64,000 bases of DNA. It comes from Leptonemataceae bacterium. GTDB taxonomy: Bacteria; Spirochaetota; Leptospiria; Leptospirales; Leptonemataceae. Location: contig OZ253574.1 of assembly GCA_965262995.1 (NCBI GenBank), positions 994,513 to 1,058,512 on the forward strand. Reading direction: 5' to 3'. This document shows positions 4,642 to 42,929 of the stretch, piece after piece; within the stretch, counting starts at the first letter, position 1, and each line of letters opens with the position of its first letter. The position numbers were made by a program, and so were the translations under genes. The notes below the pieces were generated by a model, which saw only the letters and a list, made by a program, of their open reading frames with translations, had not been told where the DNA came from and ran no database searches.

Positions 4642-4677
4642 TCCTTAATATACCGTAATCAATAACTCAAGTTTTAA

Positions 4678-8788: not shown

Positions 8789-9487
8789 ATGTATGAAAAA
8801 CTTAAAAGTAAATACCCTAGTCGGTCAGCCTTAAAACTACTTCACGCCTTAGATTTTTTTCGTAAAAAACATCATTTATCCATTAAAGAAAGAATTTGTA
8901 TAGATTTTGGATCTTCTCATGGGGGGTTTGTAAAAGTTTTATTAGATGAGGGGGCAAAAAAAGTTTATAGTGTTGATGTTGCTTATGGAATTTTAGATTA
9001 TAATTTACGCAAAAATGAAAAAGTGATTATCAAAGAACGGACAAATCTAAGAAACATTGATTTGACTTGGTTCTCACTTGAAGATCAAAAACTTATTGTA
9101 AATACTAACCTCTCAACCCCAGAATTTGAGTATGAGAAAGCTGATTTTAAGGAGTCTCAATGCAAAAACTTGGATTTTGATTTAAAGAGGGTTTTTCTGA
9201 CTTGCGATGTTTCTTTTATTTCAGCCAGTACTGTTCTAAATGTGTGGCAAAAATTTGTAACAAACTATTCAATTTCTTACGAGGCTCTAATCCTTATCAA
9301 GCCTCAATTTGAAGCCTCTACGCTAACACAAAAAGGTGTTATAACTGACATGCAAGTAAGAGAAGACATTATAGAAAACATCATTGCAAAGGCAAAAAAG
9401 CTAGATCTAAAGACAATAGAGGTTACCCCTGTAGAGCCGAAAGGAACTCACGGGAATCAAGAATACATGTTGTACTTAAAAAATTAA
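8789..9487 (+). CDS. TlyA/FtsJ-family rRNA 2'-O-methyltransferase-like protein (no S4 domain)
   Basis: 'RSALKLLHALDFF' and SAM motif 'IDFGSSHGGFVKVLLDEGAKKVYSVDV', as in TlyA. The N-terminal S4 RNA-binding domain is absent, and there is an internal insertion. Confidence 0.65.
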   Translation: MYEKLKSKYPSRSALKLLHALDFFRKKHHLSIKERICIDFGSSHGGFVKVLLDEGAKKVYSVDVAYGILDYNLRKNEKVIIKERTNLRNIDLTWFSLEDQKLIVNTNLSTPEFEYEKADFKESQCKNLDFDLKRVFLTCDVSFISASTVLNVWQKFVTNYSISYEALILIKPQFEASTLTQKGVITDMQVREDIIENIIAKAKKLDLKTIEVTPVEPKGTHGNQEYMLYLKN

Positions 9488-14374: not shown

Positions 14375-17300
14375 TTACGTTTTTGGGGCGGATGGCTCGG
14401 CGGGCGATTTAGATTTTTTCTCTTTATATTTTACAAACTCATCTAATCTGTTTTCCCACTTCTTTTTGTCCGTTAGCCAAAGACTCCATTCTTCATCACT
14501 AATAAATAAATTTACGTCGTCCTCTTTATTTTCGATAGCCTTTTCGATATGTTTATATTCGATATGTTTATACATAATAATTCCCTTGCGAGCAATATTA
14601 TAAGCCCCGTTGGCATCTGCATCACAAGGTAGGCCTTTCTCACTTTTTCGAGAATCAAAATGGTTTCCTTTTTCGTCTCTTACACAAGAAAGTAAGAAAT
14701 TATCATCTTGGTTTTGTTTAGGGTCGCCGGAATTTCTAATTTGCTGTATAAGCTCAATAGCAAAGCGAAGTGATTCCCAAGCTGTGTGTTCTGAAATTTT
14801 TGATAATTGGACACCCTTTTTATCCTCTTCAATTTGCATTTTTAGAGATTTTTCTTTATCAAAGTCCTCAAATAAACCTTTGAGCATTTGTTTTACATTA
14901 AAAAATTCTGGTTCATAAATACCTTGATCATTTTTTTTATTTCTATATCTCTCAAGAGCTTCACCGTTTTTACCAGACCATAGCCTCCAAGTCTTTTCTT
15001 GTTTGTCCTTATATTGAAAATAATAATCTCCGTTTTTATCAATAGCTATTTCTTCAAACGAGTCAAGAATCTGTTTTTTGATATTTTCTTCAGTTCCTGT
15101 TTTTAGATAAATCGTTTTGTACCAACCTGTAGCTGGGTCAGTAATAGAAGTATAATTTGCCCTTGTATAGAGCATGATTCCAAATTGCTTCTGATTTTCA
15201 ATGTCTTCAAATTTTTTTACAAGGGGAGTGAGTTGAAGGGCTTTGGAAACCGAGCCTATCCCCACTTTGGCATTTTTATCTACTAAAAAATTCAGCTTCT
15301 TGGCTAGGGCTAATTCAAATTTTTGATAAACATTTTTTTCAAATTTTTGACGACCTCTCTTAAAACCTTGGGTTAGACCCTCTAACACAATAAAGGTTGG
15401 CTTAAAATTGCCATTCTCATCTTTACATTTTTTAAGAATCTCATGTATTGCAAGTGAAATATAACCTTCTTTTAAAGGAGCAATTTTATCCTGTGACAGC
15501 CATTCTAATTTTTGCTGTTTTCTTTTATCTGCTCTGTCTTGAATACTTTCTCCATAATTTTTTCCATTGATGCTATCAAAATGCCCCTGTTCTTTTATAT
15601 TGCATTCTTTATCTACAAGAGAGTAATAGATAAGATGTTTTTCACCTCTATCTATTCCTAAAAATTGCACATCTTCTTTTAGAAAGGTTTCGTTTACGAG
15701 TTTATTGACTGGTTTAATATAATCCTTTGGGGTTTTTCCCGACACTTGGACATTGTCATAATTCAAGGATATAGGAAAATGAAATTGTATTTTTTCTTCT
15801 GTAAAACGTTTATTTTTTATTATATCATGTTTAAAAACACTAGCGATTTCCCCATCAGTACGGCGTTTAATAGGTTCGTTTTTGGGGTGTAGTGTAGTCT
15901 GAGGAAAAGCTACTTTATTTCTAAAAAATATTTTAGCATTAGCTTGAAGTTGTATATTACTATTTTCATGAAAAAGATTTTCAAAATATAAAGTTTGCAA
16001 ATTAGGAAAACTATTTTTACTTTTTACTCCACGATTTTTAGAAAAATCTTTGCTATAAATTTGAAATAAATAAAGATTCTTTTTCTCTATATTATTTAAT
16101 AATTCTTTCCAATTGATAGGTGTAAATTCACATTCATAACTTTCTTTTAAGATTTGATCTAAATCATTGTGAAATTCACTTTTGTCTGAATATTTTTTTT
16201 TAACAATACTATTCAGTTTTGGATACTTTTCAAGATAAGTTTTATTACCCGTTGTCATCTTATAATCACGGATAAAGTTTTGGGCTTTTTCTATAGCTTC
16301 TATATTATTTCTTTTAGACATATCTTGATATTTTTCACCGTAATAAGATATGAATCCCTTTCCTAAAACTGTTTTAGATGTTATATTTTTTAAAATGAGA
16401 CGACCTGCATTTTCGGTCGGAGATTGATAAATAGGATTACCTTCTTTTCCTGTATCAAAAATTTTTCGTTCTATTAAAATTCCGACAAAGTATTCATCAG
16501 ATTTTTTGATAATAACACTTCCTTTGATTTTTTCTTGTCCGTCAGGCCAGCCACCAAGTAAATTTGAATTTTCAAAATTAAGCTGTATCTTATTTTCTTT
16601 TGCATCATCTTGGGGCTTTTTTGTCAGATAATTTCTTATGGTATCATAAGCATTAGTCCAATGAATATCTTTGGGGCGTAAAATAGCATCTAGCATATTC
16701 GAAAACTCAGCATCTAAAGCACCGCCACTACTCTTTTTTATTTTTGACTCTGAAACATAAAATAACTTTACGGTTCTTACAATCTCAATACAGGCATCTA
16801 AAAATTCTTTGATTTTTAAGATATTTTCCTCTTTCTTAAAATCTTGCATTACAATAGCTTTTTTATTTTTTTGAAATTCGTTGAACTGTGCTTCTAAATC
16901 ACAACAGATAAGAGAAATGAGAGTTTTACTGGGCTTGTCTTCTGATTTTATTACGTCTTTGTACCTCTCATTTTCTAAAACACTATTTTTAAAAAAAGTC
17001 TGCGTCCAATCATTTTCTAGTTTTGAGGCCTCATCTATAATTTCAAATAAAATTGAAAGCTGAACCGTATCTTTGAATTCGAAGCCTTTCTTTTTTTTAT
17101 CGTAGCGGGCTATTTTTTTATATTTTTCTTTAGTGGCGTTTTCTAATTTATCTTTGCTTAAAAGAACATTTTTTACTTTTTCTGCGAGAGCTTGAAAGTT
17201 TGCTAAATACTTGTTCGATATTTTCGATAATGCCGATTTAGACCAATGCACGCTATCCCAATCTTGATTTGATGTGAGCCAGTTTATGAGAGTATGTGAG

Positions 17301-18472
17301 TTTGTTTTATCTTCGACAAATTCTGTATTAAAATAGTTATCACCCGCCTTAAAAATGTTTTCTAAAACACCTTCTACACTCAATACAGATGCAGTATTTT
17401 TGGGCTCTTTCTCTTCTTGTTGCTCTTTTGTGTCGTATTGAATGGCATCAAAAAGTGCTTTTTTATCCCCGCAACCAATCTGTTTGTATAAGGTTTTAAA
17501 ATAGAGTAGTTTACCTTTCTTTGCTTCTTTTGTAACCAGTTGTTGGTTGTATAAATTGATTACTAGATTATACCCTCCTATGATGCAATTGTATTTTTCT
17601 ATCTCTTTTTGAGAAAGACACTTCGAGAAATTATCTATATTAAATATCGCCTCTGAAATATCTTCTGATTCAATCATATCCCCCGAACGAGTATCTTTAA
17701 TTTGGGTTGTTTTACCTTTATCTTTGAGAGAAGTGCGGGCGAGTTTGTAAGAATCTTTATTTTTTTCAAACTGTACAGAGTTTGAGCAAAATTTGCGTAA
17801 ATTTTCATGCACGATACGAGTGGCTATAGCAGTTGCTTTTTCTTTTTCTGTTTCATAATAATTGTTTCTGTTTTGATTATAAGTTGCGAAATATCCCCAA
17901 AAACCTTTAAAAACACTTAAATGCCCGTTTTCGCCTGTATATTCAGCAGAGTTTTTTTCGCATAGCTTTGCTAATTCTTGTATGTTTTGTTTTAAATACT
18001 CGAGCAACCCAGCTTCAAATAATTTCTCTATCCCTATTTTTTTGAAGATAGCTTTTCCTTTCCCTTTGAGTTGTGGGTTTTTGGTAACTTCATCTGCTGC
18101 TATGGAATAGGTTTTGCCTATTTCTGTTCTTAATTTTTTTTCTATTGTTTCTAATTCTTTTTTAGCTTGGTCATTAGAGGCTTTGTATGTTTCATAATAC
18201 TCGTTGAAATTAATTTCCTTAGCCGCTTTTGATTCTAAACTCGCATCGATCACCTGTTCATGCACCTTATCTAAAATAGGCTTTAAATCATTGTAGGCCT
18301 TAGCTATTTTTTTATCTTGGGCGATTATTTCTTTGAGAGATTCTACCATTTCTTTAGAGCTTACAACATCTCCATTTTTGCCCACCAGCTTCAACTCAAA
18401 CCGTAAAGTCTTGCTCAAAGAATATACGTTTGTAAACTTATCCCATATACTTTTTTTGTTTGCTATACTCAT
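14375..18472 (-). CDS. cas12a: type V-A CRISPR effector Cas12a (Cpf1)
   Basis: 1365 aa. RuvC-I 'FLGIDRGEKHLIYYSL', RuvC-II 'FIVLEGLTQGFKRGRQKFEKNVYQKFE', RuvC-III 'LPCDADANGAYNIARKG'. WED/pre-crRNA RNase region 'LHPKNEP...HDIIKNKRFTEEKIQFHFPISLNY'. No HNH domain. Adjacent to an array whose repeat carries the Cas12a handle. SD AAAGGAG precedes the ATG. Confidence 0.95.
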   Translation of the reverse strand: MSIANKKSIWDKFTNVYSLSKTLRFELKLVGKNGDVVSSKEMVESLKEIIAQDKKIAKAYNDLKPILDKVHEQVIDASLESKAAKEINFNEYYETYKASNDQAKKELETIEKKLRTEIGKTYSIAADEVTKNPQLKGKGKAIFKKIGIEKLFEAGLLEYLKQNIQELAKLCEKNSAEYTGENGHLSVFKGFWGYFATYNQNRNNYYETEKEKATAIATRIVHENLRKFCSNSVQFEKNKDSYKLARTSLKDKGKTTQIKDTRSGDMIESEDISEAIFNIDNFSKCLSQKEIEKYNCIIGGYNLVINLYNQQLVTKEAKKGKLLYFKTLYKQIGCGDKKALFDAIQYDTKEQQEEKEPKNTASVLSVEGVLENIFKAGDNYFNTEFVEDKTNSHTLINWLTSNQDWDSVHWSKSALSKISNKYLANFQALAEKVKNVLLSKDKLENATKEKYKKIARYDKKKKGFEFKDTVQLSILFEIIDEASKLENDWTQTFFKNSVLENERYKDVIKSEDKPSKTLISLICCDLEAQFNEFQKNKKAIVMQDFKKEENILKIKEFLDACIEIVRTVKLFYVSESKIKKSSGGALDAEFSNMLDAILRPKDIHWTNAYDTIRNYLTKKPQDDAKENKIQLNFENSNLLGGWPDGQEKIKGSVIIKKSDEYFVGILIERKIFDTGKEGNPIYQSPTENAGRLILKNITSKTVLGKGFISYYGEKYQDMSKRNNIEAIEKAQNFIRDYKMTTGNKTYLEKYPKLNSIVKKKYSDKSEFHNDLDQILKESYECEFTPINWKELLNNIEKKNLYLFQIYSKDFSKNRGVKSKNSFPNLQTLYFENLFHENSNIQLQANAKIFFRNKVAFPQTTLHPKNEPIKRRTDGEIASVFKHDIIKNKRFTEEKIQFHFPISLNYDNVQVSGKTPKDYIKPVNKLVNETFLKEDVQFLGIDRGEKHLIYYSLVDKECNIKEQGHFDSINGKNYGESIQDRADKRKQQKLEWLSQDKIAPLKEGYISLAIHEILKKCKDENGNFKPTFIVLEGLTQGFKRGRQKFEKNVYQKFELALAKKLNFLVDKNAKVGIGSVSKALQLTPLVKKFEDIENQKQFGIMLYTRANYTSITDPATGWYKTIYLKTGTEENIKKQILDSFEEIAIDKNGDYYFQYKDKQEKTWRLWSGKNGEALERYRNKKNDQGIYEPEFFNVKQMLKGLFEDFDKEKSLKMQIEEDKKGVQLSKISEHTAWESLRFAIELIQQIRNSGDPKQNQDDNFLLSCVRDEKGNHFDSRKSEKGLPCDADANGAYNIARKGIIMYKHIEYKHIEKAIENKEDDVNLFISDEEWSLWLTDKKKWENRLDEFVKYKEKKSKSPAEPSAPKT

Positions 18473-18574
18473 TTTTTTCTCCTTTTTACTTCCCCCTAAC
18501 TTAATTTGGAATACTTACATTTATATTTTCTCGCACCATCATCATACCATACAAGAGAGGTGTGATATTTTAGA

Positions 18575-18603
18575 AATTTAGAAAACCTTTCTCACCTTGG
18601 CAA
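18575..18603 (-). promoter_or_regulatory. candidate sigma70-type promoter for cas12a, between the last repeat and the cas12a start
   Basis: Minus strand reads TTGCCA, a 17-nt spacer, then TAAATT, about 100 nt upstream of the ATG. Sequence inspection only. Confidence 0.3.
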
Positions 18604-18625
18604 GCGAATGAGACAACACTCTCCC

Positions 18626-20888
18626 ATCTACAACAGTAGAAATTTATTTAGAGTTCCTCACACAGACGGAAGAGTTAAACAAGCAAAATCTACAACAGTA
18701 GAAATTTATTTAGAGTTCCTCACACAAGTGGAAACGATAAACGCGGGCAGATCTACAACAGTAGAAATTTATTTAGAGTTCCTCACCTCACATGCCATGA
18801 CTTGTCCAAATTAATCTACAACAGTAGAAATTTATTTAGAGTTCCTCACAAATAGGTATACTGGAGAGTGAATCCACATCTACAACAGTAGAAATTTATT
18901 TAGAGTTCCTCACTAGTGTAGTGCCTAAAAGGGTCGATACGCTATCTACAACAGTAGAAATTTATTTAGAGTTCCTCACAGTGGTAGCAATGGTACAAGT
19001 CACAGATCTACAACAGTAGAAATTTATTTAGAGTTCCTCACTCTTATGAGTACGGAAGTGAGTCATCTATCTACAACAGTAGAAATTTATTTAGAGTTCC
19101 TCACACTTTCTTTTTTTGGGATCGCTGTCGAATCTACAACAGTAGAAATTTATCTAGAGTTCCTCACTGACTTGGAAGGAGAAGCGAACAGAAATATCTA
19201 CAACAGTAGAAATTTATTTAGAGTTCCTCACAAATGGCAAAAGAAATAACATTATTAAGATCTACAACAGTAGAAATTTATTTAGAGTTCCTCACCTTGA
19301 CTCTCATCTATGCTATCACTATAATCTACAACAGTAGAAATTTATTTAGAGTTCCTCACTAGAGGGGACTACAGTATAATACATGTATCTACAACAGTAG
19401 AAATTTATTTAGAGTTCCTCACTTTCGCAGAACTACTGGCAGAACTAACATATCTACAACAGTAGAAATTTATTTAGAGTTCCTCACCCAATATAAGGAA
19501 CTGAAACTCATTCATATCTACAACAGTAGAAATTTATTTAGAGTTCCTCACTGATAGAGTAAACAACATGGCTGGCAATAATCTACAACAGTAGAAATTT
19601 ATTTAGAGTTCCTCACAGCCAAATAATTCTCACCCAACCTCCGATCTACAACAGTAGAAATTTATTTAGAGTTCCTCACTCTTAGTATGCCTAGAGCTAA
19701 CGAAGCATCTACAACAGTAGAAATTTATTTAGAGTTCCTCACGGGGCATTGGACAACACAAAGAGACGCAATCTACAACAGTAGAAATTTATTTAGAGTT
19801 CCTCACGTGTTTTTTCGAATTCTAAAAATAAGTATCTACAACAGTAGAAATTTATTTAGAGTTCCTCACTATGACTGACTCAGAAGTTATTGCTTTTTAT
19901 CTACAACAGTAGAAATTTATTTAGAGTTCCTCACTGTGTTTAAGGATTCTTATAACTATGCCATCTACAACAGTAGAAATTTATTTAGAGTTCCTCACCC
20001 TGAGATGAAATATAACGTAAGAAAATATCTACAACAGTAGAAATTTATTTAGAGTTCCTCACCACCACATTAAAAGTAGAGAGTATCTATCTACAACAGT
20101 AGAAATTTATTTAGAGTTCCTCACTACAAAAAAACTTATAGAGCTAAAAAATATCTACAACAGTAGAAATTTATTTAGAGTTCCTCACTAGTAAGTGGGG
20201 TCGTTCGCAGGTGTAAAAATCTACAACAGTAGAAATTTATTTAGAGTTCCTCACTGCAACATCTACACTCAATTCAGCAATATCTACAACAGTAGAAATT
20301 TATTTAGAGTTCCTCACTTGTAAACTGTCCCACAGTTCATTTAGATCTACAACAGTAGAAATTTATTTAGAGTTCCTCACAATTACATGACGTGGAAATT
20401 TTTTAGTATCTACAACAGTAGAAATTTATTTAGAGTTCCTCACAATTACGGACCTATTGCGAATTTTAATGATCTACAACAGTAGAAATTTATTTAGAGT
20501 TCCTCACACAAAAGCAGATATTTGGAAAAGTTTGATCTACAACAGTAGAAATTTATTTAGAGTTCCTCACACACTGCCCTTAAATATAGAATTTATTGAT
20601 CTACAACAGTAGAAATTTATTTAGAGTTCCTCACATATAACATTATAGGGAAATACAATTATATCTACAACAGTAGAAATTTATTTAGAGTTCCTCACGT
20701 ATTGCTACTATTGCATTTAGTGAGATCTACAACAGTAGAAATTTATTTAGAGTTCCTCACTAGCAAAATTCTTTAGTAAAGGTGTTGGCGTTAAGATCTA
20801 CAACAGTAGAAATTTATTTAGAGTTCCTCACCCCAATTTATCTATTATAAAAATCTACAACAGTAGAAATTTATTTAGAGTTCCTCAC
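18626..20888 (-). CRISPR. type V-A CRISPR array, 36 repeats of 36 nt and 35 spacers
   Basis: Plus-strand repeat is ATCTACAACAGTAGAAATTTATTTAGAGTTCCTCAC. The transcribed minus strand reads GTGAGGAACTCTAAATAAATTTCTACTGTTGTAGAT. Spacers are mostly 26-30 nt. Exceptions are a 35-nt spacer (20761-20795) and a 21-nt spacer (20832-20852). One repeat variant (19132-19167) has TATCTAGAG instead of TATTTAGAG. Confidence 0.98.
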
Positions 20889-21067
20889 CCTATTGACAAA
20901 ATTCAAATAGGAAATTTATGACAAAAAGAAAGGTTTTACTTTCTGAACTCTTTAGAAGGTAAAATTCTTTACTTTTTAAAGACATAAACCATAAAAAACT
21001 CTATACAGTGACATAATAAAGACATCTATTTTATCGTAAAGCATATTAAGACCAAGGTTTGCAAATT
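20889..21067 (-). promoter_or_regulatory. putative CRISPR leader
   Basis: AT-rich 179-bp non-coding segment between the cas2 stop and the first repeat in transcription order. The position matches the leader of Cas12a arrays. Confidence 0.55.
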
Positions 21068-21340
21068 TTACAACATCAGTATCTCTTTATCCTCATTGGC
21101 AGCATATCCAAATCGTTGCACTTTATCAACTGCTCCAAGATGAAAAATTATTACACTATCAGCTCCTGTAAATTTTGATTTATACCTTAAGTTAATTTCT
21201 GTAATAATATTTTCTAAAACTCTTTTACTAAATTTGATTTGAAAAACTGAATACTGAATACGATGACCATACTTTAATAAAAATTTGGAAAAATGTAAAC
21301 GCACCTTATTATTTGAAATATCATAGGCCACAATCAACAT
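21068..21340 (-). CDS. cas2: CRISPR-associated endoribonuclease Cas2
   Basis: 90 aa starting 'MLIVAYDISNNKVR...IQYSVFQ', a ferredoxin-like Cas2 pattern. Directly downstream of cas1. Confidence 0.9.
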   Translation of the reverse strand: MLIVAYDISNNKVRLHFSKFLLKYGHRIQYSVFQIKFSKRVLENIITEINLRYKSKFTGADSVIIFHLGAVDKVQRFGYAANEDKEILML

Positions 21341-21349
21341 AACTATTTT

Positions 21350-22315
21350 TTATATTAGAAATCGAGGATATTCCTCCAAAGACTTATTTTTCATAAAGGC
21401 CCTATAAAAATTTTGAATATAAATAAAAATTTCTTCTTTGTATTCCATTAAAGCTTCTGCAAAAAGAAAAGTATACTTTTCACTCTTTTTATATTTCATT
21501 TCGTATTGCTTCCTTAAAAAAATAAAATCGCTTGGGTCAATTTGCTTTAAAGAAAAGGCCTTTCGTAATTTTGCATCAATGATACAACGAAATGGTTCTA
21601 TAAGATCGCAAACCAAAGATTTTCTTTCATAAAAAGGTCTATGGAAAACTCCTTTATACAAATCAAAACCATAAAGACGTAAATGACTTTCTATAAAACT
21701 AAAAAGATACGTATAACCCACATCTAAAAGTAAATTAATAATATCATGACGGGTACGAGGGAGACGACGTTGCCAATCAAATCGTTCAAAGTAGGCTTGA
21801 AAAAATTCTTTACTACAATACCCCTCCACCCCCATTAAAGTTTGATTGTCGTTTGTTTCTAAAACAAAATCTAAATTATGTTTTAATTTATTTATAGCGT
21901 TTTTTAATTTTAAACTTTTGCCACGAATGTCTTTTAAATTTTTTAATTGATTCAAAATTTTATTATGCACAATAATCTTAGAAAGTAAAAAACTTTGGGA
22001 ATGTGTATACTGCTTTTCTCTAAGTAAATAATTTCCTTCTGTTTGAGCACCCATAACACTATACACACGAAAATTACGACCCATCAACACTGTTATAAAA
22101 CCATAGCTAACAGCTTTACGCAAAAGAACACTTGTAAGGGTTGTATCCCCAATTAAAAATAAAGCAAATATCTTATAGCAGGGTACTTTATTTTCTATAA
22201 GATTTGTATCTGTCTCTCGAATAATCAAATTATCATTTGAAAATTGTAACTTTTGATTTTTCTTTCCATGTATAAAAACAATTTGCTTTTCTTTAAAATC
22301 AGGCAAGGTTAACAT
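21350..22315 (-). CDS. cas1: CRISPR-associated integrase Cas1
   Basis: 321 aa with the conserved Glu in 'LMGVEGYCSKEFF', His in 'GVFHRPFY' and acidic 'DLIEPFR'. Confidence 0.92.
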   Translation of the reverse strand: MLTLPDFKEKQIVFIHGKKNQKLQFSNDNLIIRETDTNLIENKVPCYKIFALFLIGDTTLTSVLLRKAVSYGFITVLMGRNFRVYSVMGAQTEGNYLLREKQYTHSQSFLLSKIIVHNKILNQLKNLKDIRGKSLKLKNAINKLKHNLDFVLETNDNQTLMGVEGYCSKEFFQAYFERFDWQRRLPRTRHDIINLLLDVGYTYLFSFIESHLRLYGFDLYKGVFHRPFYERKSLVCDLIEPFRCIIDAKLRKAFSLKQIDPSDFIFLRKQYEMKYKKSEKYTFLFAEALMEYKEEIFIYIQNFYRAFMKNKSLEEYPRFLI

Positions 22316-22322
22316 ATTTCTT

Positions 22323-22868
22323 TTAACAAATATCGCACAAAGGATTGTAAATACATTCTCGACACTTCCCTTCTATTTGCTGAAAAGAATCTAATAAATT
22401 AAATTTTTTAACTTGAAGCAAATGCCCTTCAAATTTTTTAATAGTGGCATCGTCGGGAATCGGAAGGTTATAGCGTTTATTATCATCTAAGGAGTGAAGA
22501 CATAAGGAATCTACACCAAAACCCATCTCTGTTAGACAAAAGTAATGCGCGTATATTTGATAAAGATAGCCTTCATATATAGTTTTAATTTTACCCTTTC
22601 TCTCAATAATTTTTTTATCTTCTTGATCATAAACATCTATCTTACCGCAAATACCATATTTTTCGGAATAAACGTCTATATTTAGCAAATAGCGATTTAA
22701 AGTGGAGTAACTCCCCTTTTCTATGCTCTCATGCTTGATTTTTCCTTGAATTTGCGAATTTCTGTGATAAAGGCGTGAGTCGTATTGCCCATAAAGTTGA
22801 TGATAATAAATAGAACGCGGACAAAAAACAAAGTCATTTAAATAAGTGATGGGTAAATACGTTTCCAC
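22323..22868 (-). CDS. cas4: CRISPR-associated exonuclease Cas4
   Basis: 181 aa with N-terminal Cys 'FVFCPRSIYY', RecB-nuclease core 'GKIDVY...IIERKG' and C-terminal Cys cluster 'CRECIYNPLCDIC' (4Fe-4S ligands). Confidence 0.9.
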   Translation of the reverse strand: METYLPITYLNDFVFCPRSIYYHQLYGQYDSRLYHRNSQIQGKIKHESIEKGSYSTLNRYLLNIDVYSEKYGICGKIDVYDQEDKKIIERKGKIKTIYEGYLYQIYAHYFCLTEMGFGVDSLCLHSLDDNKRYNLPIPDDATIKKFEGHLLQVKKFNLLDSFQQIEGKCRECIYNPLCDIC

Positions 22869-22930
22869 TTTTAAACATTTCGGTTTTCATTTACCTAAAC
22901 ATTAATATTAAGATGTAGGTGGTGGCAAGG

Positions 22931-23218
22931 TTAAGTGCTTTTATGATTTGAGGGTGGGATTAGCTTTTTGGAAGCTGAAAAAAATATTTTTTCTTTCAAA
23001 TTTGCTATCGTGACAAATTCCATCAAAGTTAAAAAATCTACGCATTCAAAATCTCCAAAGTTTTGAATGGGGCTCCTTTTGTTTTCTATTTTTTGAACAA
23101 AATTCTTGTCATATTTTTTTGCCCATGAACATACACATTGATAAGGAGTTTGTAAAAGTGCTGCAATTTCATTATAAGTATAAGCACCCTCTCCGAACTT
23201 TAATTCATAGCCTTTCAT
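22931..23218 (-). CDS. small HTH-like protein at the head of the cas4-cas1-cas2 cluster (hypothetical)
   Basis: 95 aa. 'YTYNEIAALLQTPYQCVCSWAKKY ... VDFLTLMEFVTIANLKEK' resembles MerR/VapB45-type N-terminal HTH modules. This is pattern recognition only. No Shine-Dalgarno is present, and the ATG lies 3 nt after a degenerate CRISPR repeat. Confidence 0.45.
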   Translation of the reverse strand: MKGYELKFGEGAYTYNEIAALLQTPYQCVCSWAKKYDKNFVQKIENKRSPIQNFGDFECVDFLTLMEFVTIANLKEKIFFSASKKLIPPSNHKST

Positions 23219-23220
23219 AT

Positions 23221-23256
23221 TTCTACAACAGTAGTAATTTATATAAGTCCCGTAAT
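23221..23256 (-). repeat. solitary degenerate CRISPR repeat (psi-repeat 1) abutting the HTH-like gene start
   Basis: TCTACAACAGTAG (23222-23234) matches the array repeat exactly. The handle half reads AAAUUACUACUGUUGUAGAA versus canonical AAUUUCUACUGUUGUAGAU. The distal half of the repeat is diverged. Confidence 0.8.
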
Positions 23257-23337
23257 CTTCTTAGTTAGAACTTAAAACCAAGACTATTTAAGCCGAATAT
23301 TATGTACACAATAAATTAGGCAACATTAAGTCATGCC

Positions 23338-23600
23338 CCTCCTTTGCAATATTGGCGTGATAACAAAAACCGTCTCTATAATAGCGTCGGCGATGGCGGC
23401 GACCTCAAATCTATAAGTGGCTGTTGCAATAGAGGGTCTGGTGGAGATTTTTCGGCGGGATTAAGTAGTAAGCCGTCTTTGCAATAGAAGCGACAGTGAT
23501 AGGCTGTTTTTTGGCTACAACCCGCCTTTGCAATAGAGGTGGTGTAGTCTTTTTTATTTAGCAACAACACGTATTTTTAATAGTGGCGATGTAAACGGTT
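23338..23600. repeat. GC-enriched degenerate tandem repeat (~47-54 bp unit, 5-6 copies) with TTGCAATAG core
   Basis: Cores lie at about 23344 (TTGCAATATTGGCG), 23377 (TATAATAGCGTCGG), 23424 (TTGCAATAGAGGG), 23478 (TTGCAATAGAAGCG), 23527 (TTGCAATAGAGGTGG) and 23574 (TTTTAATAGTGGCG). Inter-core segments are also homologous (TTTTTCGG/TTTTTTGG/TTTTTTAT). Confidence 0.75.
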
Positions 23601-23666
23601 TTATTTAGGCCTCTAACTTACAATTTTTTTAAACGTCTAAGTAAATCCTGTGCGTCTATTAGAAAA

Positions 23667-24011
23667 TTAGGAACCAATTGGAACACTTTTTTCTGCCTGC
23701 TCTCTATTGTAAGTGTGAGAAGTTGTGTTTCGTGCATTTAAATATGAAATCCAATCTTCAGAATCCTTTATCAATTCAAGTTTTGCTGCCTCCCTAAAAG
23801 TATCTTTGCGCGCTGTAATCTCTGGCATGTTAAAAATTTCCTTTAAAACTCTATTTAGAAGTTGTCGTGAAATATCCATTGTGATCTCGAAACATTGAAT
23901 GACCCCCATACGCCCCACTTCCATTTCTGGAATTTTTGCCTGTTCTTTTAAAACTCGACTTAAAGTATCTATTGCTTTTTCCAAAGCTTCAAAACTTAAC
24001 TTCTCTATCAT
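23667..24011 (-). CDS. HEPN-domain toxin (HI0074-family nucleotidyltransferase substrate-binding protein, HepT-like)
   Basis: 114 aa with C-terminal R-x4-H motif 'RNTTSHTY'. Directly downstream of a minimal nucleotidyltransferase gene. Confidence 0.8.
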   Translation of the reverse strand: MIEKLSFEALEKAIDTLSRVLKEQAKIPEMEVGRMGVIQCFEITMDISRQLLNRVLKEIFNMPEITARKDTFREAAKLELIKDSEDWISYLNARNTTSHTYNREQAEKSVPIGS

Positions 24012-24025
24012 AAATTATTTTATTT

Positions 24026-24352
24026 TTAACTTTTTACTTTCAACACAACTTTATCTTTTTTTATAATATTTTTAAAAGTTTCACTTATGCAAGCCCAATC
24101 CACAATATCAACCTTATATGGAAGATCAGATTCTTGAAAGGCTTCGTTTAATTCAGCGTTCGCATTTATACACAAAGGTTCTGTAGTTAAGATAGCAATG
24201 TCAAGGTCTGAATGCTTTTTGGCAATACCTTTGGCTCGTGAACCAAAGACCCAAACTTCATATTGAGGTACATGTTTTTGTAAAATTTCGTGAACTAATA
24301 GCAAATGTCTCGGTTCAATATCTATTAGGTCTGTTTTTTTTATTTCACTCAT
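24026..24352 (-). CDS. minimal nucleotidyltransferase antitoxin (MNT/MntA-like)
   Basis: 108 aa with 'VWVFGSRAKGIAKKHSDLDIAIL', the GS-x9-DxD pol-beta nucleotidyltransferase motif. Confidence 0.85.
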   Translation of the reverse strand: MSEIKKTDLIDIEPRHLLLVHEILQKHVPQYEVWVFGSRAKGIAKKHSDLDIAILTTEPLCINANAELNEAFQESDLPYKVDIVDWACISETFKNIIKKDKVVLKVKS

Positions 24353-24569
24353 ACATTAAATCTGCAATTTTAAAGGGGCTAAAATTTATATTATCTATCA
24401 GACTTATACCATCCATATATTAATCACAAAAACACACAAAAATATAAAGATACAAAGTATAAAGAAACAATAAATAAAAATAAAAATATAAAAAGTTTAT
24501 ATTTTATTCATACACCTTTACCACCTTATCTTTTAGTGGAGTAGGCTCCTATTTGTTAAAAAGAGAAAT

Positions 24570-25559
24570 TTACTTCGTTTCTAAAAACTCAAAAATTTTA
24601 TCATTACTTGGTACATCTGTGAAAGGTGAAAGATGATCTCCTTCTACAATTTTTAAAACAGTGGCTTTGTTTTTTGTTAAAAAAGTAACTTCATCTGTTG
24701 TTAAACGTCCTATAGGTCCATCATATTCTCCATAGACATACATTAGATTTTTTAAATCCTTGCTTTCTAATAATTTTGAATATCTATTTTGACCAAAGGC
24801 AGCTTGCAGTTTATTCATGTTTTTAGAACTAAAAGTCACATTTGGACCTGGGTCATGTCTTTTAAAATTTTCGCCAGTAGCATCAAAATAGCCTCCGACA
24901 CCATCCCTAAAAGCCATCCACATTTCATCTGGTGTGTCTATTCTTCCAGCCCATATAGATAACTTATCTGCAATTCTACTTATATCTGTTTTTGCTATAA
25001 GGTAAGGCATGAGGAAGGAACCAAAAGAATGCGAAATTAAATAAACCCTTTTGTTTTGTTGTTTAAACGACTCTGCCACTTTACAAGCCATGTAAGTTGA
25101 TATTTCATCGTCTTTAAATGCCCTTTCCATAGTATAATTTTTACTATATTCTGTAGTATTCCACTTCATAATGTCAGGATTAATCATTTGAGATTGATAC
25201 ACACTAGCAACAGTAAAAATGCTAGCCCATTTTGGAAGTCCTGAGTCAAAAGAACCTTGAGCAGGTGGAACAGGGATTCCTGTTATAGGACCTCCTATCA
25301 TAAACACGACAACCGTATTAGAATTAGCGTTACCACTTTTTAAGTACATATCTGATACTAAACTTGGTATTACCGTAGTCGTTGGCTCAGTACTTGTTAT
25401 TATACTATCACATGTATTCGTATTATTATTAGTGGTTGAGTCGGCATTTTTACATGTAACAAATCCAAGAACTAATAAACCTAAAGTAATAAATTGAAAA
25501 TAACTTTTCAATTTATTAACACATTCATTTTTTTTTATTGAAATATTTATTTTAATCAT
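24570..25559 (-). CDS. lipoprotein, alpha/beta-hydrolase (lipase/esterase)-like
   Basis: Signal peptide with lipobox 'LGFVTC' and nucleophile-elbow-like 'LISHSFGSF'. No closer family recognised. Confidence 0.55.
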   Translation of the reverse strand: MIKINISIKKNECVNKLKSYFQFITLGLLVLGFVTCKNADSTTNNNTNTCDSIITSTEPTTTVIPSLVSDMYLKSGNANSNTVVVFMIGGPITGIPVPPAQGSFDSGLPKWASIFTVASVYQSQMINPDIMKWNTTEYSKNYTMERAFKDDEISTYMACKVAESFKQQNKRVYLISHSFGSFLMPYLIAKTDISRIADKLSIWAGRIDTPDEMWMAFRDGVGGYFDATGENFKRHDPGPNVTFSSKNMNKLQAAFGQNRYSKLLESKDLKNLMYVYGEYDGPIGRLTTDEVTFLTKNKATVLKIVEGDHLSPFTDVPSNDKIFEFLETK

Positions 25560-25806
25560 TTTATTTTGCTCCCTACTATTTTCTAAAATAGTTTTTATCT
25601 ATTAGAAAATTTTGACTATATTTTGTAAAGATAAAATCGATAAATTATTAATAAAAAAATAATCTATAAATAGTTGAAGTAGCGTGGTGGTGGTTGTGGT
25701 GGTGGTGGTGTTTCGCTAAACCCGATTTTAGCTCGTCCTGCCTGCCCTGAGCAAAGCGAAGGGATCGACAAAAAAAGGCGGGGAGGGGCGATTTTCTTGG
25801 CTAAAT

Positions 25807-26322
25807 TTATTTTGTATAAATTGTGGCTTTACCATCATCTTCTCTATATATACTTGTAATTTTTCCTTTAAATGGCAATAATTCGCCTTTTTTATACTTA
25901 CCCGCCTCAGCCTCACTTTTAACTATTTTTATGATTTTAATATCATGAACTTTTGTTTTATTTTTTGTTTCTGATAAAATACAACTATGAGTATCGTATT
26001 TTAGATGCTGGGTAGTCGTAGACTTATCTTTTGAATCTTCGATTTTTGCAGAGGTGGTTTTACTTGAATCTTTTGTGACATCGCCGTTTTCTTTTGCAGT
26101 ATATTTATCAACTTCATCAACACTATCTACACCTTGAGAACTTTCATAGTCAATACTATCGTTTTCATATATATTCTGTTCGCAGCTGTCAGGAACATGT
26201 ATTTTAAATTCTAATTCGTAATTACCAGTGTAAGTAAAACAATTTTCACAAGCCACCAATATGAGTGCTGAAACAAATCTCACAAAAATACTATCATAGT
26301 CTATTTCACCTTTTTTAAACAT
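25807..26322 (-). CDS. hypothetical lipoprotein
   Basis: 171 aa with lipobox 'LILVAC', an acidic Ser/Asp-rich middle and a Lys-rich C-terminal domain. Confidence 0.5.
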   Translation of the reverse strand: MFKKGEIDYDSIFVRFVSALILVACENCFTYTGNYELEFKIHVPDSCEQNIYENDSIDYESSQGVDSVDEVDKYTAKENGDVTKDSSKTTSAKIEDSKDKSTTTQHLKYDTHSCILSETKNKTKVHDIKIIKIVKSEAEAGKYKKGELLPFKGKITSIYREDDGKATIYTK

Positions 26323-26562
26323 TAGCTCTTTTATGAAAACTGCAGCAAAGGGATTGGTTGATTGTTCATTTTTTGCTTCTTTTTTAAAGTAAAGTAATTA
26401 AAAAAGTGAATAGACACTATTTGCCTCAATGCATTTATATCTAAATTGATTTATTATAAACTATGCAAAGTTCTCAATATTACAAAAAATATTTGAGTAC
26501 TCCATCGCTCCCACTGGTACTTAGCTTTCTTTATTGTAATTATACATTAGAAATCCGGGAAT

Positions 26563-26683
26563 ACTCACCGACTGCCATATTACTGTCAAAGCCATCTTGA
26601 GAATACTCAAGATGGCTTTGAACCATACCAACTTTAATGCGTTAAAGTTGACTTTATACTAGGGCACGTCGGTGGCAGTGAGT
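26563..26683. other. GC-enriched structured intergenic element (closing stem plus two perfect hairpins); candidate ncRNA, strand undetermined
   Basis: Hairpin A: CAAAGCCATCTTGAG / CTCAAGATGGCTTTG (26587-26620, 15 bp, 4-nt loop). Hairpin B: CAACTTTAA / TTAAAGTTG (26629-26650). Outer arms ACTCACCGACTGCC (26563-26576) and GTCGGTGGCAGTGAGT (26668-26683) can pair in two alternative registers. Confidence 0.4.
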
Positions 26684-26721
26684 GGATAGTAAGGAGAAAC
26701 TTCTGCAAGTCTCCCTTTACA

Positions 26722-26757
26722 AAACACAACAATACACATTTATTTAGAGTTTCTTAC
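26722..26757 (-). repeat. decayed solitary CRISPR repeat (psi-repeat 2)
   Basis: AAACACAACAATACACATTTATTTAGAGTTTCTTAC matches the array repeat at 28 of 36 positions. The match is colinear and in the same orientation. The handle hairpin is destroyed. Confidence 0.65.
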
Positions 26758-26864
26758 AAATATCTTTAATCAAATCAAAAGGAGATTAAACAAAAATTGC
26801 TTCTTTACTTGAAAATTCTTTCCTTTTAATTCGGTTTTCTTACAAAAATAGGAACACTACTTTT

Positions 26865-28148
26865 ATGGAAAATTATTTTAAATTAGACTTTAAATACGCA
26901 AAAGATATAATCATAGAAGAACATGCTCTCAAGGCACAAAACATTCAAAAAGAACTCGAAAATAAAAATAAAGAAAATGATTCTAAGGCCATGCTAGGTT
27001 GGTTGGACTTACCCCTAGATTACGAAGAAAATCCCAAACACAAAGCCATCTTAGAAAAAATAAAAGAAGATACATTCAAAATCAATAAATTTGATGTTTT
27101 AGTGGTGGTGGGGGTGGGTGGTTCACTTCTTGGAACTAGGGCCCTGCAAGAGGTTTTTATTCACAATCCTAACATGAAAAAAAAAATAGAGGTCATATAC
27201 ATGGGGGATAATCTGGATGCCACCTATCAAAAAAAATGCCTAGATTACTTAAAAGATAAAAAATATGCCGTGAATATTATTTCCAAAAGTGGAAAAACCC
27301 TAGAGCCCGCTCTAGCCTTTAGAGCCCTATGGAAGGATTTAGAAAGTAAATTTGGAAAAAATCTCAAAGAGCATATCTTTGTCACAACAGATCCTCACGA
27401 TGGCTTCCTCGCTCCACTAGCAAAAGATTACAATCTTCCGTCATACACCATTCCTGAAAACATTGGCGGACGATATAGTGTCTTTACTCCTGTAGGCCTT
27501 CTGCCATTAAGTGCAATGGGTTTAGATATTGACAGGCTACTAGAGGGGGCAAGAAAAACTCGCTTGATTTTAGAAAAAAAAGAATTTATAAACAATCCCG
27601 CCCTGCAATATTCTTGCTATAGGCATTACGCGTATCAAAACTTAAAAAAAATAGAAATTTTTGGGGTCTATCAGTCTAATTTATATTTTTTAGGGCGGTG
27701 GTGGCAACAACTCTTTGGAGAATCTGAAGGCAAGGGTGGGAAGGGGGTATTCCCTACAGTCTTACAGTTCACAAACGATCTACATTCAATGGGGCAATGG
27801 ATACAAGAAGCAGAAAGAAGTATTTTTGAAACAATTATCGATATTAAGCAAATGAACGGTCCAAGCATTGAAAAGATAGAAAATGACTTTGATGATCTAA
27901 ATAAATTTGCAGGAAAAACAATACATGAAATTAACAGAATAGCCATCCAAGCCTCTCTCCAAGCCCATGCAAGTGGGGGCGTGCCTTGCCTACGCATAGA
28001 GGTTCCAAAAATAGAAGAAGGCTCCTTTGGAAGCCTTCTTTATTTTTTTATGTATTCTTGTGCCCTATCTGCCAAAATGTTAGGAGTAAATCCCTTTGAT
28101 CAACCGGGTGTTGAGACATACAAAAAAAACATGCAAAAACTACTTTAA
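26865..28148 (+). CDS. pgi: glucose-6-phosphate isomerase
   Basis: 427 aa with 'VVGVGGSLLG', 'IISKSGKTLEP', 'GGRYSVF' and 'GESEGKGGKG' PGI signatures. Confidence 0.92.
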   Translation: MENYFKLDFKYAKDIIIEEHALKAQNIQKELENKNKENDSKAMLGWLDLPLDYEENPKHKAILEKIKEDTFKINKFDVLVVVGVGGSLLGTRALQEVFIHNPNMKKKIEVIYMGDNLDATYQKKCLDYLKDKKYAVNIISKSGKTLEPALAFRALWKDLESKFGKNLKEHIFVTTDPHDGFLAPLAKDYNLPSYTIPENIGGRYSVFTPVGLLPLSAMGLDIDRLLEGARKTRLILEKKEFINNPALQYSCYRHYAYQNLKKIEIFGVYQSNLYFLGRWWQQLFGESEGKGGKGVFPTVLQFTNDLHSMGQWIQEAERSIFETIIDIKQMNGPSIEKIENDFDDLNKFAGKTIHEINRIAIQASLQAHASGGVPCLRIEVPKIEEGSFGSLLYFFMYSCALSAKMLGVNPFDQPGVETYKKNMQKLL

Positions 28149-41484: not shown

Positions 41485-42837
41485 ATGAAAAAAAACGAAA
41501 ATAGAATAAGAGCTAAAAAAAAAATAGTTACTCCCTTATCTGTCCCCACCACTCACGCTATTGTAAACGCTGATAGTCGAGAAATGAAAGCTGTAGCCGA
41601 TAAGAGTGTGCATTTAGTTATTACCTCTCCCCCTTATTGGCAGCTTAAAGATTATGGTACAGAAAATCAAATAGGCTTTCACGATGATTATGAGTCCTAT
41701 ATCAATCACCTGAATCTTACATGGTCAGAGTGTTACAGAGTCTTGCATGATGGATGTCGTTTGTGTGTAAATATAGGAGATCAATTCGCAAGGGCAACAT
41801 ATTATGGACGATATAAAGTGATACCCATCCATTCTGAAATTATAAAATTTTGTGAAACCATAGGCTTTGATTTTATGGGGAAAATAATTTGGCAGAAAGT
41901 AACCACAATGAATTCTTCAGGTGGGGCGAGTATAATGGGTAGTTTTCCTTATCCAAGAAATGGAATAGTAAAATTAGATTTTGAGTATATTTTACTTTTT
42001 AAGAAACAAGGAAAGTCTCCAAAACCTACAAATGATCAAAAAAGTTATTCTAAAATGACAACAGAAGAATGGAATACGTACTTTAATGGACATTGGAATT
42101 TTTCAGGTGCACGGCAGGATAAGCATCTTGCTATGTTTCCTGAGGAGTTGCCCTTGCGTTTGATTAAAATGTTTTCTTTTGTGGGAGAGGTGGTATTGGA
42201 TCCTTTTATGGGTAGTGGCACAACAGCTAGCGTCTCTAAAAAACTAAATAGAAACTCTATTGGCTATGAAATCAATCCCGAATTTATCCCCATTATTAAA
42301 GATAAGATAGAAAAGATAGAGGGGGTGGGTGAGGTTACAATACTAGAGCAAAAATCTGCAGAAAAGAAACGTATTACAGAAGAGACTTTTGAGAACTCCT
42401 TATCCAAACTACCATACAAATTTATAGATTTTCACAAGCTAGATAAGAAAATAGATGTAAAGAAAAAACAATACGGCTCAAGATTAGACGCAAATAGTAA
42501 CCGAAAGAGAGAAGAGTTTTTTACAGTAAAAGAAATACTAAGTCCATACCTAATCAAACTTAATAATGATGTGACAATTCGTTTGCTCGGTATAAAAGAA
42601 AATCCTCTAGTAAACGGAAAAGCTAATGAATATTTAGAAAAAAAAATAAAAGGGAAAAAGGTATTTCTAAAATATGAAAACGCCTTGGCTTCATTGCAAG
42701 CTAACCCAATGGTGTACTTGTATTTAGAAAATAAAACATTTATCAATGCACATTTATTAAAAAATAAATTAGCTTTGGTTGATAATTCTATAGAGTATAA
42801 ACATAAGAATAAATTTAACAAATTGGTAAATATTTGA
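41485..42837 (+). CDS. DNA methyltransferase (beta-class N6-adenine/N4-cytosine) fused to a C-terminal SNase/OB-like domain
   Basis: Motif IV 'ITSPPYW' precedes motif I 'LDPFMGSGTT'. C-terminal 'VTIRLLGIKENP...KKVFLKYE...YLYLENKTFINAHLLKNKLA' resembles a thermonuclease fold but lacks its catalytic residues. Confidence 0.75.
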   Translation: MKKNENRIRAKKKIVTPLSVPTTHAIVNADSREMKAVADKSVHLVITSPPYWQLKDYGTENQIGFHDDYESYINHLNLTWSECYRVLHDGCRLCVNIGDQFARATYYGRYKVIPIHSEIIKFCETIGFDFMGKIIWQKVTTMNSSGGASIMGSFPYPRNGIVKLDFEYILLFKKQGKSPKPTNDQKSYSKMTTEEWNTYFNGHWNFSGARQDKHLAMFPEELPLRLIKMFSFVGEVVLDPFMGSGTTASVSKKLNRNSIGYEINPEFIPIIKDKIEKIEGVGEVTILEQKSAEKKRITEETFENSLSKLPYKFIDFHKLDKKIDVKKKQYGSRLDANSNRKREEFFTVKEILSPYLIKLNNDVTIRLLGIKENPLVNGKANEYLEKKIKGKKVFLKYENALASLQANPMVYLYLENKTFINAHLLKNKLALVDNSIEYKHKNKFNKLVNI

Positions 42838-42929
42838 AACATAAACTTAATTCTCATAAACTTCCTATAGCGTTTTTTATTTTTTAGCCTCTCAAAAAAT
42901 TCAGCGACAAAAGCAGGCTTATTAAATCA

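Follow-up and report, generated by a model that had tools for sequence, protein, structure and literature searches.

How did the effector gene of a type V-A CRISPR-Cas locus come to lie behind its own array, and does a locus arranged in this manner still encode a complete immune system? The question is raised by a stretch of DNA of 64,000 nucleotides (nt), hereafter the window, from a Leptonemataceae bacterium (GenBank assembly GCA_965262995.1, contig OZ253574.1, positions 994,513 to 1,058,512 of the forward strand); all coordinates below are positions within the window unless another contig or locus is named. We are confident that positions 14375-22868 hold a complete and probably functional type V-A adaptive immunity locus on the chromosome of an uncultured member of the Leptospirales. 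The subtype is well known, and what is distinctive here is the divergent effector, the odd gene order and the presence of two repeat-derived sequences outside the array. An initial annotation, made from the sequence alone, had already described a complete system of Cas12a, cas4-cas1-cas2 and an array, and this description stands, as family models are matched for all four genes. What it did not state, however, was the position of the array between cas2 and cas12a, and the unusual order, the standalone repeats and a 37th repeat had gone unnoticed.

The effector gene, cas12a (cpf1), occupies 14375..18472 on the minus strand and encodes a protein of 1365 amino acids (aa), in which REC1, the WED RNase residues, RuvC and Nuc can be recognised using TIGR04330, Pfam, PADLOC and alignments to chains in the PDB. 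The protein matches the Cas12a equivalog model TIGR04330 with 535 bits (cutoff 300), from residue 11 to 1334 and from position 2 to 1285 of the 1288 in the model, and fifteen PADLOC Cas12a profiles match it as well, the best being Cas12a_M57_V-A with 1228 bits. Pfam finds only REC1 and RuvC_1 in this open reading frame (ORF), HNH being absent. The 26 PDB matches that reach E ≤ 1e-3 all belong to Cas12a/Cpf1 or to ReChb, which derives from Cas12a; their scores are only around 240 to 360 bits, so the window Cas12a is remote from every solved structure, and its clade has no solved structure among these matches. Each of the motifs quoted in the initial annotation (LHPKNEP, IIKNKRF, IDRGE, VLEGL..GFKRGR and DADANGAYNIA) could be located in the ORF.

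To place the catalytic residues, we counted positions in the alignment to chain 5mga_A of Francisella novicida Cas12a (FnCas12a); the roles of the residues are those established in published work on FnCas12a. The sites of the RNase that acts on the precursor (pre-crRNA) of the CRISPR RNAs (crRNAs), H843, K852 and K869 in FnCas12a, correspond column for column to H862, K869 and K886. The RuvC triad D917/E1006/D1255 corresponds to D941/E1031/D1286, and the Nuc arginine R1218 to R1246; furthermore, D941, E1031, R1246 and D1286 do not vary across 26 aligned members of the clade. Thus, the split RuvC without HNH that had been proposed is confirmed by the residue-for-residue alignment of the D/E/D triad and by the Pfam results, and the H/K/K alignment bears out the WED region as the putative site of pre-crRNA processing.

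The adaptation genes lie on the same strand. The first, cas4 (22323..22868, minus strand, 181 aa), is of the type V variety (TIGR04328 cas4_PREFRAN, 204.3 bits against a cutoff of 70; PF01930), as is cas1 (21350..22315, minus strand, 321 aa; TIGR04329 cas1_PREFRAN, 371.9 bits against a cutoff of 300, positions 1-316 of 317 in the model). The third, cas2 (21068..21340, minus strand, 90 aa), matches PF09827 with an E value of 1e-13 and the general model TIGR01573 with 39.7 bits (cutoff 24.5). With these, the cutoffs of the profile hidden Markov models for Cas12a, Cas1, Cas2 and Cas4 are all exceeded. The Cas1, Cas2 and Cas4 proteins of the window are nearest to those of loci with more distant Cas12a proteins, from Gracilibacteria, Patescibacteria and Leptospirales, and across 69 loci the similarity ranks of Cas1 and Cas12a are uncorrelated (rho = -0.04). 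This suggests that effector and adaptation modules may have been exchanged or shuffled, the differences in identity being small (38-45% versus 46-49%).

Between cas2 and cas12a lies the array (18626..20888, minus strand), identified by Tandem Repeats Finder (TRF), a repeat finder and a direct scan, with 36 repeats of 36 nt and 35 spacers. The scan reproduces the repeat number and the repeat sequence given before, which in the minus-strand reading is GTGAGGAACTCTAAATAAATTTCTACTGTTGTAGAT; 35 of the 36 copies are identical, and the one at 19132-19167 has a single mismatch. The 20-nt handle at the 3′ end of the repeat occurs in all 36 array copies, compared with 0.01 expected in shuffles, and the predicted fold of the repeat RNA has there the UCUAC/GUAGA stem and UGUU loop of the Cas12a type, as had been claimed. 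The 19-nt handle AAUUUCUACUGUUGUAGAU is identical to the FnCas12a 5′ handle. The spacers are indeed all unique, the longest exact run common to any pair being 10 nt. The earlier length range of 26-30 nt holds for 33 of the 35, and the full range is 21-35 nt (mean 27.6); type V-A repeats of 36 nt with a UCUAC-N4-GUAGA(U) handle usually go with spacers of some 26-31 nt. The newest spacer is at 20832-20852. The two leader-proximal, and thus newest, spacers (20761-20852) are 21 and 35 nt long, which sums to 56 nt, or two normal spacers, and an imprecise integration event could have produced them.

We place the leader (20889..21067, minus strand, 179 nt, AT-rich) on the cas2 side, from the stop codon of cas2 up to the first repeat, because a degenerate repeat lies at the opposite end of the array and because this AT-rich stretch follows cas2. 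It contains one sigma-70-like site at 21040-21013, a match to the consensus of a kind that is no commoner here than in shuffles. At the other end, the last perfect repeat is followed by a terminal and oldest spacer-like unit of 30 nt, GGGAGAGTGTTGTCTCATTCGCTTGCCAAG (18596..18625, minus strand), and, exactly one spacer length past that repeat, by the degenerate 37th repeat GTGAGAAAGGTTTTCTAAATTTCTAAAATATCACAC (18560..18595, minus strand). The latter matches at 21 of 36 positions, has lost its stem and is not predicted to form a stem-loop; since 21/36 is by itself background level, we call it a repeat on the basis of register and position. For the spacer-like unit, no partial target above the shuffle background was found in the locus. 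Nor did we find evidence of a trans-activating CRISPR RNA (tracrRNA): in the 64-kb window with the array masked, antisense matches to the repeat are only 12-13 nt long, at chance level and inside distant genes, and Rfam has no match in or around the locus, relaxed thresholds over 18300-27000 giving only noise. The absence of an anti-repeat reported in the initial annotation therefore extends to the whole window.

These features allow a mechanism to be proposed, in which the sequence features are those described here and the activities are taken from the family. Cas4-Cas1-Cas2 would add new spacers at the repeat next to the leader, at the cas2 end, and the leader would drive transcription of the array on the minus strand. 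Cas12a itself would then cut the pre-crRNA 5′ of each repeat stem-loop through H862, K869 and K886 of the WED domain, yielding crRNAs composed of AAUUUCUACUGUUGUAGAU at the 5′ end and about 20-24 nt of spacer, with no involvement of a tracrRNA. The Cas12a-crRNA complex would find double-stranded DNA targets flanked by a protospacer adjacent motif (PAM) and form an R-loop, and both strands would be cut by the single RuvC site (D941/E1031/D1286), with R1246 of Nuc assisting. The alignment of RNase, RuvC and Nuc residues with FnCas12a thus supports the prediction that one protein would both mature the crRNAs and cut DNA.

The host and the effector both belong to thinly covered parts of the databases. 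Ordinary chromosomal genes (pnp, glnA, recN, pgi, clpB, argH and murF) are found across the window, whose GC content is about 0.31, and no transposition genes were found near the locus. The next relatives of the host ClpB are at most 76% identical, which supports the idea of a poorly sampled lineage, and the best named ones, from Leptospirales/Leptospiraceae metagenome-assembled genomes (MAGs), reach 69%. In a search of 5.8 billion proteins, the best full-length relatives of the window Cas12a were 48-52% identical over 98-99% of the length and came mostly from Bacteroidota MAGs. A protein scan of GTDB genomes gave no close relatives, a scan by alignment gave 80 loci at no more than 50% identity, and a scan for the repeat in Joint Genome Institute (JGI) metagenomes gave no match. 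The nearest relative, an N-terminally truncated Cas12a on ENA contig ERZ25068833 ctg38919 (our loci L087/L088), was a chance find. The earlier view of a divergent ortholog in an AT-rich, poorly sampled lineage therefore holds, with a best full-length relative at 52%. The sequence itself is not new, as the window Cas12a and ClpB are both 100% identical to proteins in NCBI/ENA and the locus is therefore already public; PADLOC and NCBIfam profiles also already capture it.

We now turn to the gene order. The usual order in type V-A loci is cas12a-cas4-cas1-cas2-array, which is typical of the subtype rather than defining. In the window, the order on the minus strand is cas4 (22868-22323), cas1 (22315-21350), cas2 (21340-21068), leader, array, trailer and cas12a (18472-14375). 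In 84 related loci we mapped cas12a, the adaptation genes cas4, cas1 and cas2, and any arrays that carry the handle. In 68 of them cas4-cas1-cas2 come after cas12a, with cas1 downstream of it and co-oriented; the array then follows the adaptation genes in 51 of these 68. Where the sequence extends 2 kb or more upstream of cas12a (67 loci), an array on that side was seen only in locus L039, whose adaptation genes diverge from cas12a. Neither the gene order of the window nor a co-oriented array upstream of cas12a occurs in any of these 67 loci, which makes the arrangement an unusual one within the subtype. Since the sequence from the array to cas12a contains no predicted terminator-like site, transcription may read through from the one into the other. 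The trailer (18473-18625) contains one sigma-70-like match, at a frequency no higher than in shuffles.

The flanks of the locus suggest how this order may have arisen. Two repeat-like sequences stand outside the array, both on the minus strand and in array orientation. The first, SRU-B (ATTACGGGACTTATATAAATTACTACTGTTGTAGAA, 23221..23256), ends 2 nt before the ATG of a small gene, orf95; it keeps 18 of 20 handle positions, with the changes U-15>A and U-1>A, and 25 of 36 positions of the whole repeat, and its predicted stem has 4 bp rather than 5 bp. It is the sole handle match beyond the array, where 0.01 was expected, and blastn-short gives it a 20/21 match (E 8e-5). The second, psiR-A (GTAAGAAACTCTAAATAAATGTGTATTGTTGTGTTT, 26722..26757), matches the repeat at 28 of 36 positions, which makes it the top match outside the array in the window (the maximum over 200 shuffles was 26), and matches every array repeat with blastn E values of 1e-6 to 6e-4. 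Its 5′ 20 nt are kept (18/20), and its canonical Watson-Crick stem is degraded.

The genes around these repeats can be compared with those of the nearest relative. orf95 (22931..23218, minus strand), which marks the junction beside cas4, is the truncated N-terminal part of a gene with a helix-turn-helix (HTH) domain and DUF433. Its sole homologue among 1.8 billion representative proteins is P0242 (226 aa, HTH_28 and DUF433; 54% identity over residues 4-82), of which it spans only the N-terminal 87 residues; a word-indexed search gave no further homologue. We accordingly rejected the possibility that orf95 is a conserved Cas12a-associated gene, as it is a truncated HTH/DUF433 copy with a single homologue. 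P0242 is encoded on the contig that carries the nearest Cas12a relative, where cas12a is followed in turn by orf333, MNT, HEPN, an opposite-strand Kelch gene and the HTH/DUF433 gene. The window carries the orf333-MNT-HEPN-HTH block upstream of cas4, including a toxin-antitoxin-type pair of HEPN (23667-24011, PF08780) and MNT nucleotidyltransferase (24026-24352, PF18765/PF01909) genes on the minus strand, and the Kelch gene is missing. The first ~480 nt of orf333 are lost, homology starting at 26390, with psiR-A just past the truncated gene; at the other border, DNA homology in the HTH gene breaks off at about 22990, immediately ahead of cas4.

Most simply, the standalone repeats and the truncated neighbour may be read as traces of the rearrangement that moved cas12a. 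In the simplest reading, the ancestor would have had the order psiR-A, cas12a, cargo genes, cas4-cas1-cas2 and array, that is, a canonical V-A locus with cargo genes and, like about half of V-A loci, a standalone repeat at its upstream end. We infer that cas12a later moved behind the array, either through duplication and deletion or through excision and reinsertion, leaving fragments at the junctions. An origin from a second array or a hybrid repeat is unsupported, the sequences flanking the standalone repeats being unlike the leader or the trailer. The degree of conservation along the block (23667-26390 compared with positions 3660-5146 of L087) is mosaic: the MNT-HEPN pair is 90% identical at the nucleotide level, compared with about 72% for cas12a and 67% for the HTH gene, which suggests a recent exchange of the toxin-antitoxin cargo. 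An ORF of 329 aa within the block (24570-25559) is absent from the relative apart from a patch of 103 nt.

Several observations count against the account given so far, both of the locus as a working immune system and of its history. Expression, pre-crRNA processing and cleavage are all inferred. No credible protospacer was found when the whole array was compared by blastn with 50,697 phage records and 72,556 plasmids, nor when 20-22-mers from eight spacers were searched in IMG/VR and one in JGI metagenomes. We discarded as chance a match of spacer 2 in locus L085 (20/35 nt), whose flank GATGGT is not T-rich, and an AT-rich partial self-match of spacer 1 at 48532-48549. A 5′ T-rich PAM, read in the family by conserved lysines of the WED and PI domains (K548 and K607 in AsCas12a), is the default expectation; a PAM reading shifted from the family norm is nevertheless plausible in view of the residues that line the motif. 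When aligned to the native-numbered AsCas12a chain 8sfh_A, S542, K548 and N552 correspond to G640, Q646 and K650, so that the PAM-contacting lysine of the WED domain is a glutamine in the window Cas12a, and the core of the PAM-interacting (PI) region (around residues 670-723) is unalignable to As, Fn or Lb Cas12a. The canonical lysine is replaced throughout the clade, which conserves the WED/PI motifs GGWSDG[QE]EK and GRLIL[RK]; the basic K695, in GRLILK, stands beside the position to which HMMER aligns the PI lysine of ReChb/Fn. In AsCas12a, N547 and K548 touch the PAM directly, and orthologs whose PAM profiles differ are known to vary at this position (PMC7261169). As to the rearrangement, the flanks of psiR-A, SRU-B, leader and trailer share no similarity above shuffles, and the contig of the nearest relative breaks inside cas12a, so that the comparison covers the downstream side only. 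No remnant of cas12a was detected between psiR-A and orf171 or in orf95, and no direct repeats were found at the borders of the island.

An explanation of the standalone repeats that competes with the one of rearrangement is that they are working regulatory RNAs, acting as CreR-type guides through which Cas12a would repress a promoter, as decoys that titrate Cas12a or, in the case of SRU-B, as a translation-blocking Cas12a site. Standalone repeats are present in about half of V-A loci (PMC10120712), and a CreR guides autorepression by MbCas12a (bioRxiv 10.1101/2023.03.10.532045). Among the related loci, three carry solitary repeats with an intact handle 150-600 nt upstream of cas12a (L052, ~100-144; L055, ~9377-9412; L061, ~4650-4673), in agreement with the published surveys of standalone repeats and CreR. 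SRU-B itself retains 18/20 of the handle and a 4-bp stem, shares the orientation of the array and lies 2 nt from the ATG of orf95. However, the pseudo-spacers of SRU-B and psiR-A have no PAM-flanked partial match above shuffles in the intergenic regions of the locus, the best being at most 11/16; SRU-B is followed by neither a second degenerate repeat nor a convincing terminator; and psiR-A has lost its Watson-Crick stem. Moreover, orf95 is truncated and has no homologue other than P0242, and in the nearest relative, where the HTH/DUF433 gene is intact, nothing of the kind lies upstream of it. On balance, we regard a regulatory role as unlikely.

A broader proposal is that the rearranged order as a whole is functional, with cas12a forming a 3′ extension of the pre-crRNA and the standalone repeat RNAs serving as additional Cas12a-binding regulators or decoys. 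If this were true, Cas12a would have to cut its own message free of the array, the mRNA would then begin with the last handle-plus-spacer unit, to which the protein would stay bound, and this would couple the synthesis of the effector to the load of crRNA; one standalone repeat would, in the same reading, lie at the translation start of the truncated HTH gene. We give this proposal little chance of being correct.

Returning to the reading of a complete immune locus, it could be objected that the locus is a decaying relic without immunity. It is rearranged and has gene fragments at its flanks, none of its spacers matches a known phage or plasmid, and its two newest spacers have aberrant lengths (21 and 35 nt). 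Against this, the four cas ORFs are full length when compared with their models, all catalytic residues are intact and 35 of 36 repeats are identical, which would not be expected in a decaying array, while a lack of spacer matches is to be expected in a poorly sampled lineage; a relic is therefore very unlikely. It could also be objected that the array was placed between cas2 and cas12a by the assembly, through collapsed or mis-joined repeats, as CRISPR arrays are classic points of mis-assembly and this order is absent from all 67 related loci. Nevertheless, the window belongs to a contig of 2.42 Mb, all parts are co-oriented with a single array in the window, the unique trailer (18473-18625) links the last repeat to the start of cas12a, and the independent assembly of the nearest relative also has non-cas genes, not cas4, after cas12a, all of which makes an artefact extremely improbable. 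Finally, the chance that the effector is another type V protein (an RNA-triggered Cas12a2-like enzyme, a tracrRNA-dependent Cas12 or a nuclease-dead Cas12 associated with transposons or regulation) is close to nil, for although the PI region is divergent and Cas12a2 is reported to share the Cas12a kind of repeat (PMC9849127), the Cas12a equivalog is matched from end to end with a score that exceeds the trusted cutoff, the PDB matches include no chain named Cas12a2, the Nuc arginine and RuvC triad are present, and neither an anti-repeat nor transposition genes were found.

A few further observations concern the surroundings of the standalone repeats and the phages of related hosts. The ~360 nt between psiR-A and orf171 (26420-26780, intergenic to pgi) fold much more stably than shuffled sequence, with predicted energies of -103.7 kcal/mol on the minus strand (z = -6.0) and -86 on the plus strand (z = -5.7), and contain a perfect hairpin, CAAAGCCATCTTGAG-TATT-CTCAAGATGGCTTTG, whose fold extends to 16 bp, alternative long-range pairings being possible; this element has no Rfam match and no second copy in the window or the fetched loci. 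Between HEPN and SRU-B (23338-23540), a motif CTATTGCAAAG(N)CGG and its variants occur in 3-5 copies spaced by about 50 nt (0.27 in shuffles). The motif is found nowhere else in the window, and 23330-23600 shows no unusual fold (z = -0.08). Elsewhere in the window (41485-43787), an ORF of 285 aa with no family match comes after the gene of a type II DNA methyltransferase (PADLOC MTase_II, 575 bits), and the two may form a restriction-modification pair.

Solitary repeats of the Cas12a type are also found in LE1-like Leptospira phages, with a 20-nt handle identical to that of the window (L086, 1500-1590; vB_LbrZ_5399-LE1, KF114879.1, ~64597-64690; also KF114880.1 and KX656785.1). Some 17 nt further on comes a GC hairpin with a T-run, a layout that is the one described for the phage RNA anti-CRISPRs Racr/Cracr (10.1101/2024.10.29.618823; PMC10651486). 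No Spirochaetota hosts are listed in the Cracr preprint (10.1101/2024.10.29.618823), and the word "Leptospira" is absent from it and from the Racr paper (PMC10651486).

Cas12a enzymes serve widely as tools for editing genomes and for diagnostics, and natural variety in how they read PAMs is an asset. Given that the window Cas12a is at most 57% identical to any other protein found and that its clade has lost the PAM lysine, profiling of its PAM and activity could reveal a different specificity. The locus also appears to be a clear natural example of module reshuffling in a class 2 system: with the effector behind the array, repeat remnants at the edges and toxin-antitoxin cargo inside, it bears on the mobility and recombination of V-A loci, as well as on the role of standalone repeats. 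It leaves the general understanding of Cas12a systems unchanged, and its value for enzyme mining and for the study of V-A evolution is modest.

How, then, does the locus compare with known systems? The relative on ERZ25068833 is the closest, sharing 57% of aa over 1316 residues of Cas12a (about 75% in the C-terminal half) and the neighbouring orf333, MNT-HEPN (90% nt) and HTH/DUF433 genes. It differs in having cas12a upstream of the gene block and a complete HTH/DUF433 gene, and in lacking cas4-cas1-cas2 within 15 kb after cas12a. Its protein (L088, 2-4054) has Phe at the position of K869 (K852 in FnCas12a) and NAD instead of DAD at RuvC III, the catalytic Asp being kept. The Cas12a_M57_V-A clade (P0002-P0029), mostly from Bacteroidota/Flavobacteriales and other MAGs, shares with the window the type of adaptation genes, the repeat handle and the WED/PI motifs. 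In contrast to the window, its loci have the canonical gene order and hosts from another phylum, and the Cas1, Cas2 and Cas4 proteins of the window are closer to those of other clades.

The standalone repeats resemble the CreR of the Moraxella bovoculi V-A system and other standalone units (described by Shmakov et al. 2023 and in the preprint of Liu et al. 2023) in being derived from the repeat, lying outside the array at the upstream edge of the locus and keeping the orientation of the array, and one of them, SRU-B, has a nearly intact handle. However, they lie upstream of cas4 and of cargo genes rather than of cas12a, no pseudo-spacer has a partial match to a cas promoter, and the gene whose start codon SRU-B adjoins is a truncated one.

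When compared with the V-A locus of F. novicida U112, the window differs in its order (cas4-cas1-cas2-array-cas12a instead of cas12a-cas4-cas1-cas2-array) and in an effector of 1365 rather than 1300 aa, which matches FnCas12a with about 320 bits in phmmer and is roughly 30% identical to it, as estimated from the alignments. The WED PAM lysine of FnCas12a, K613, is Gln in the window and the PI core is unalignable, and the 5′ half of the window repeat, GTGAGGAAC..., differs as well. The two systems nonetheless have the same gene set, a single effector and no tracrRNA, and the window Cas12a keeps all the RNase, RuvC and Nuc catalytic residues of its F. novicida counterpart.

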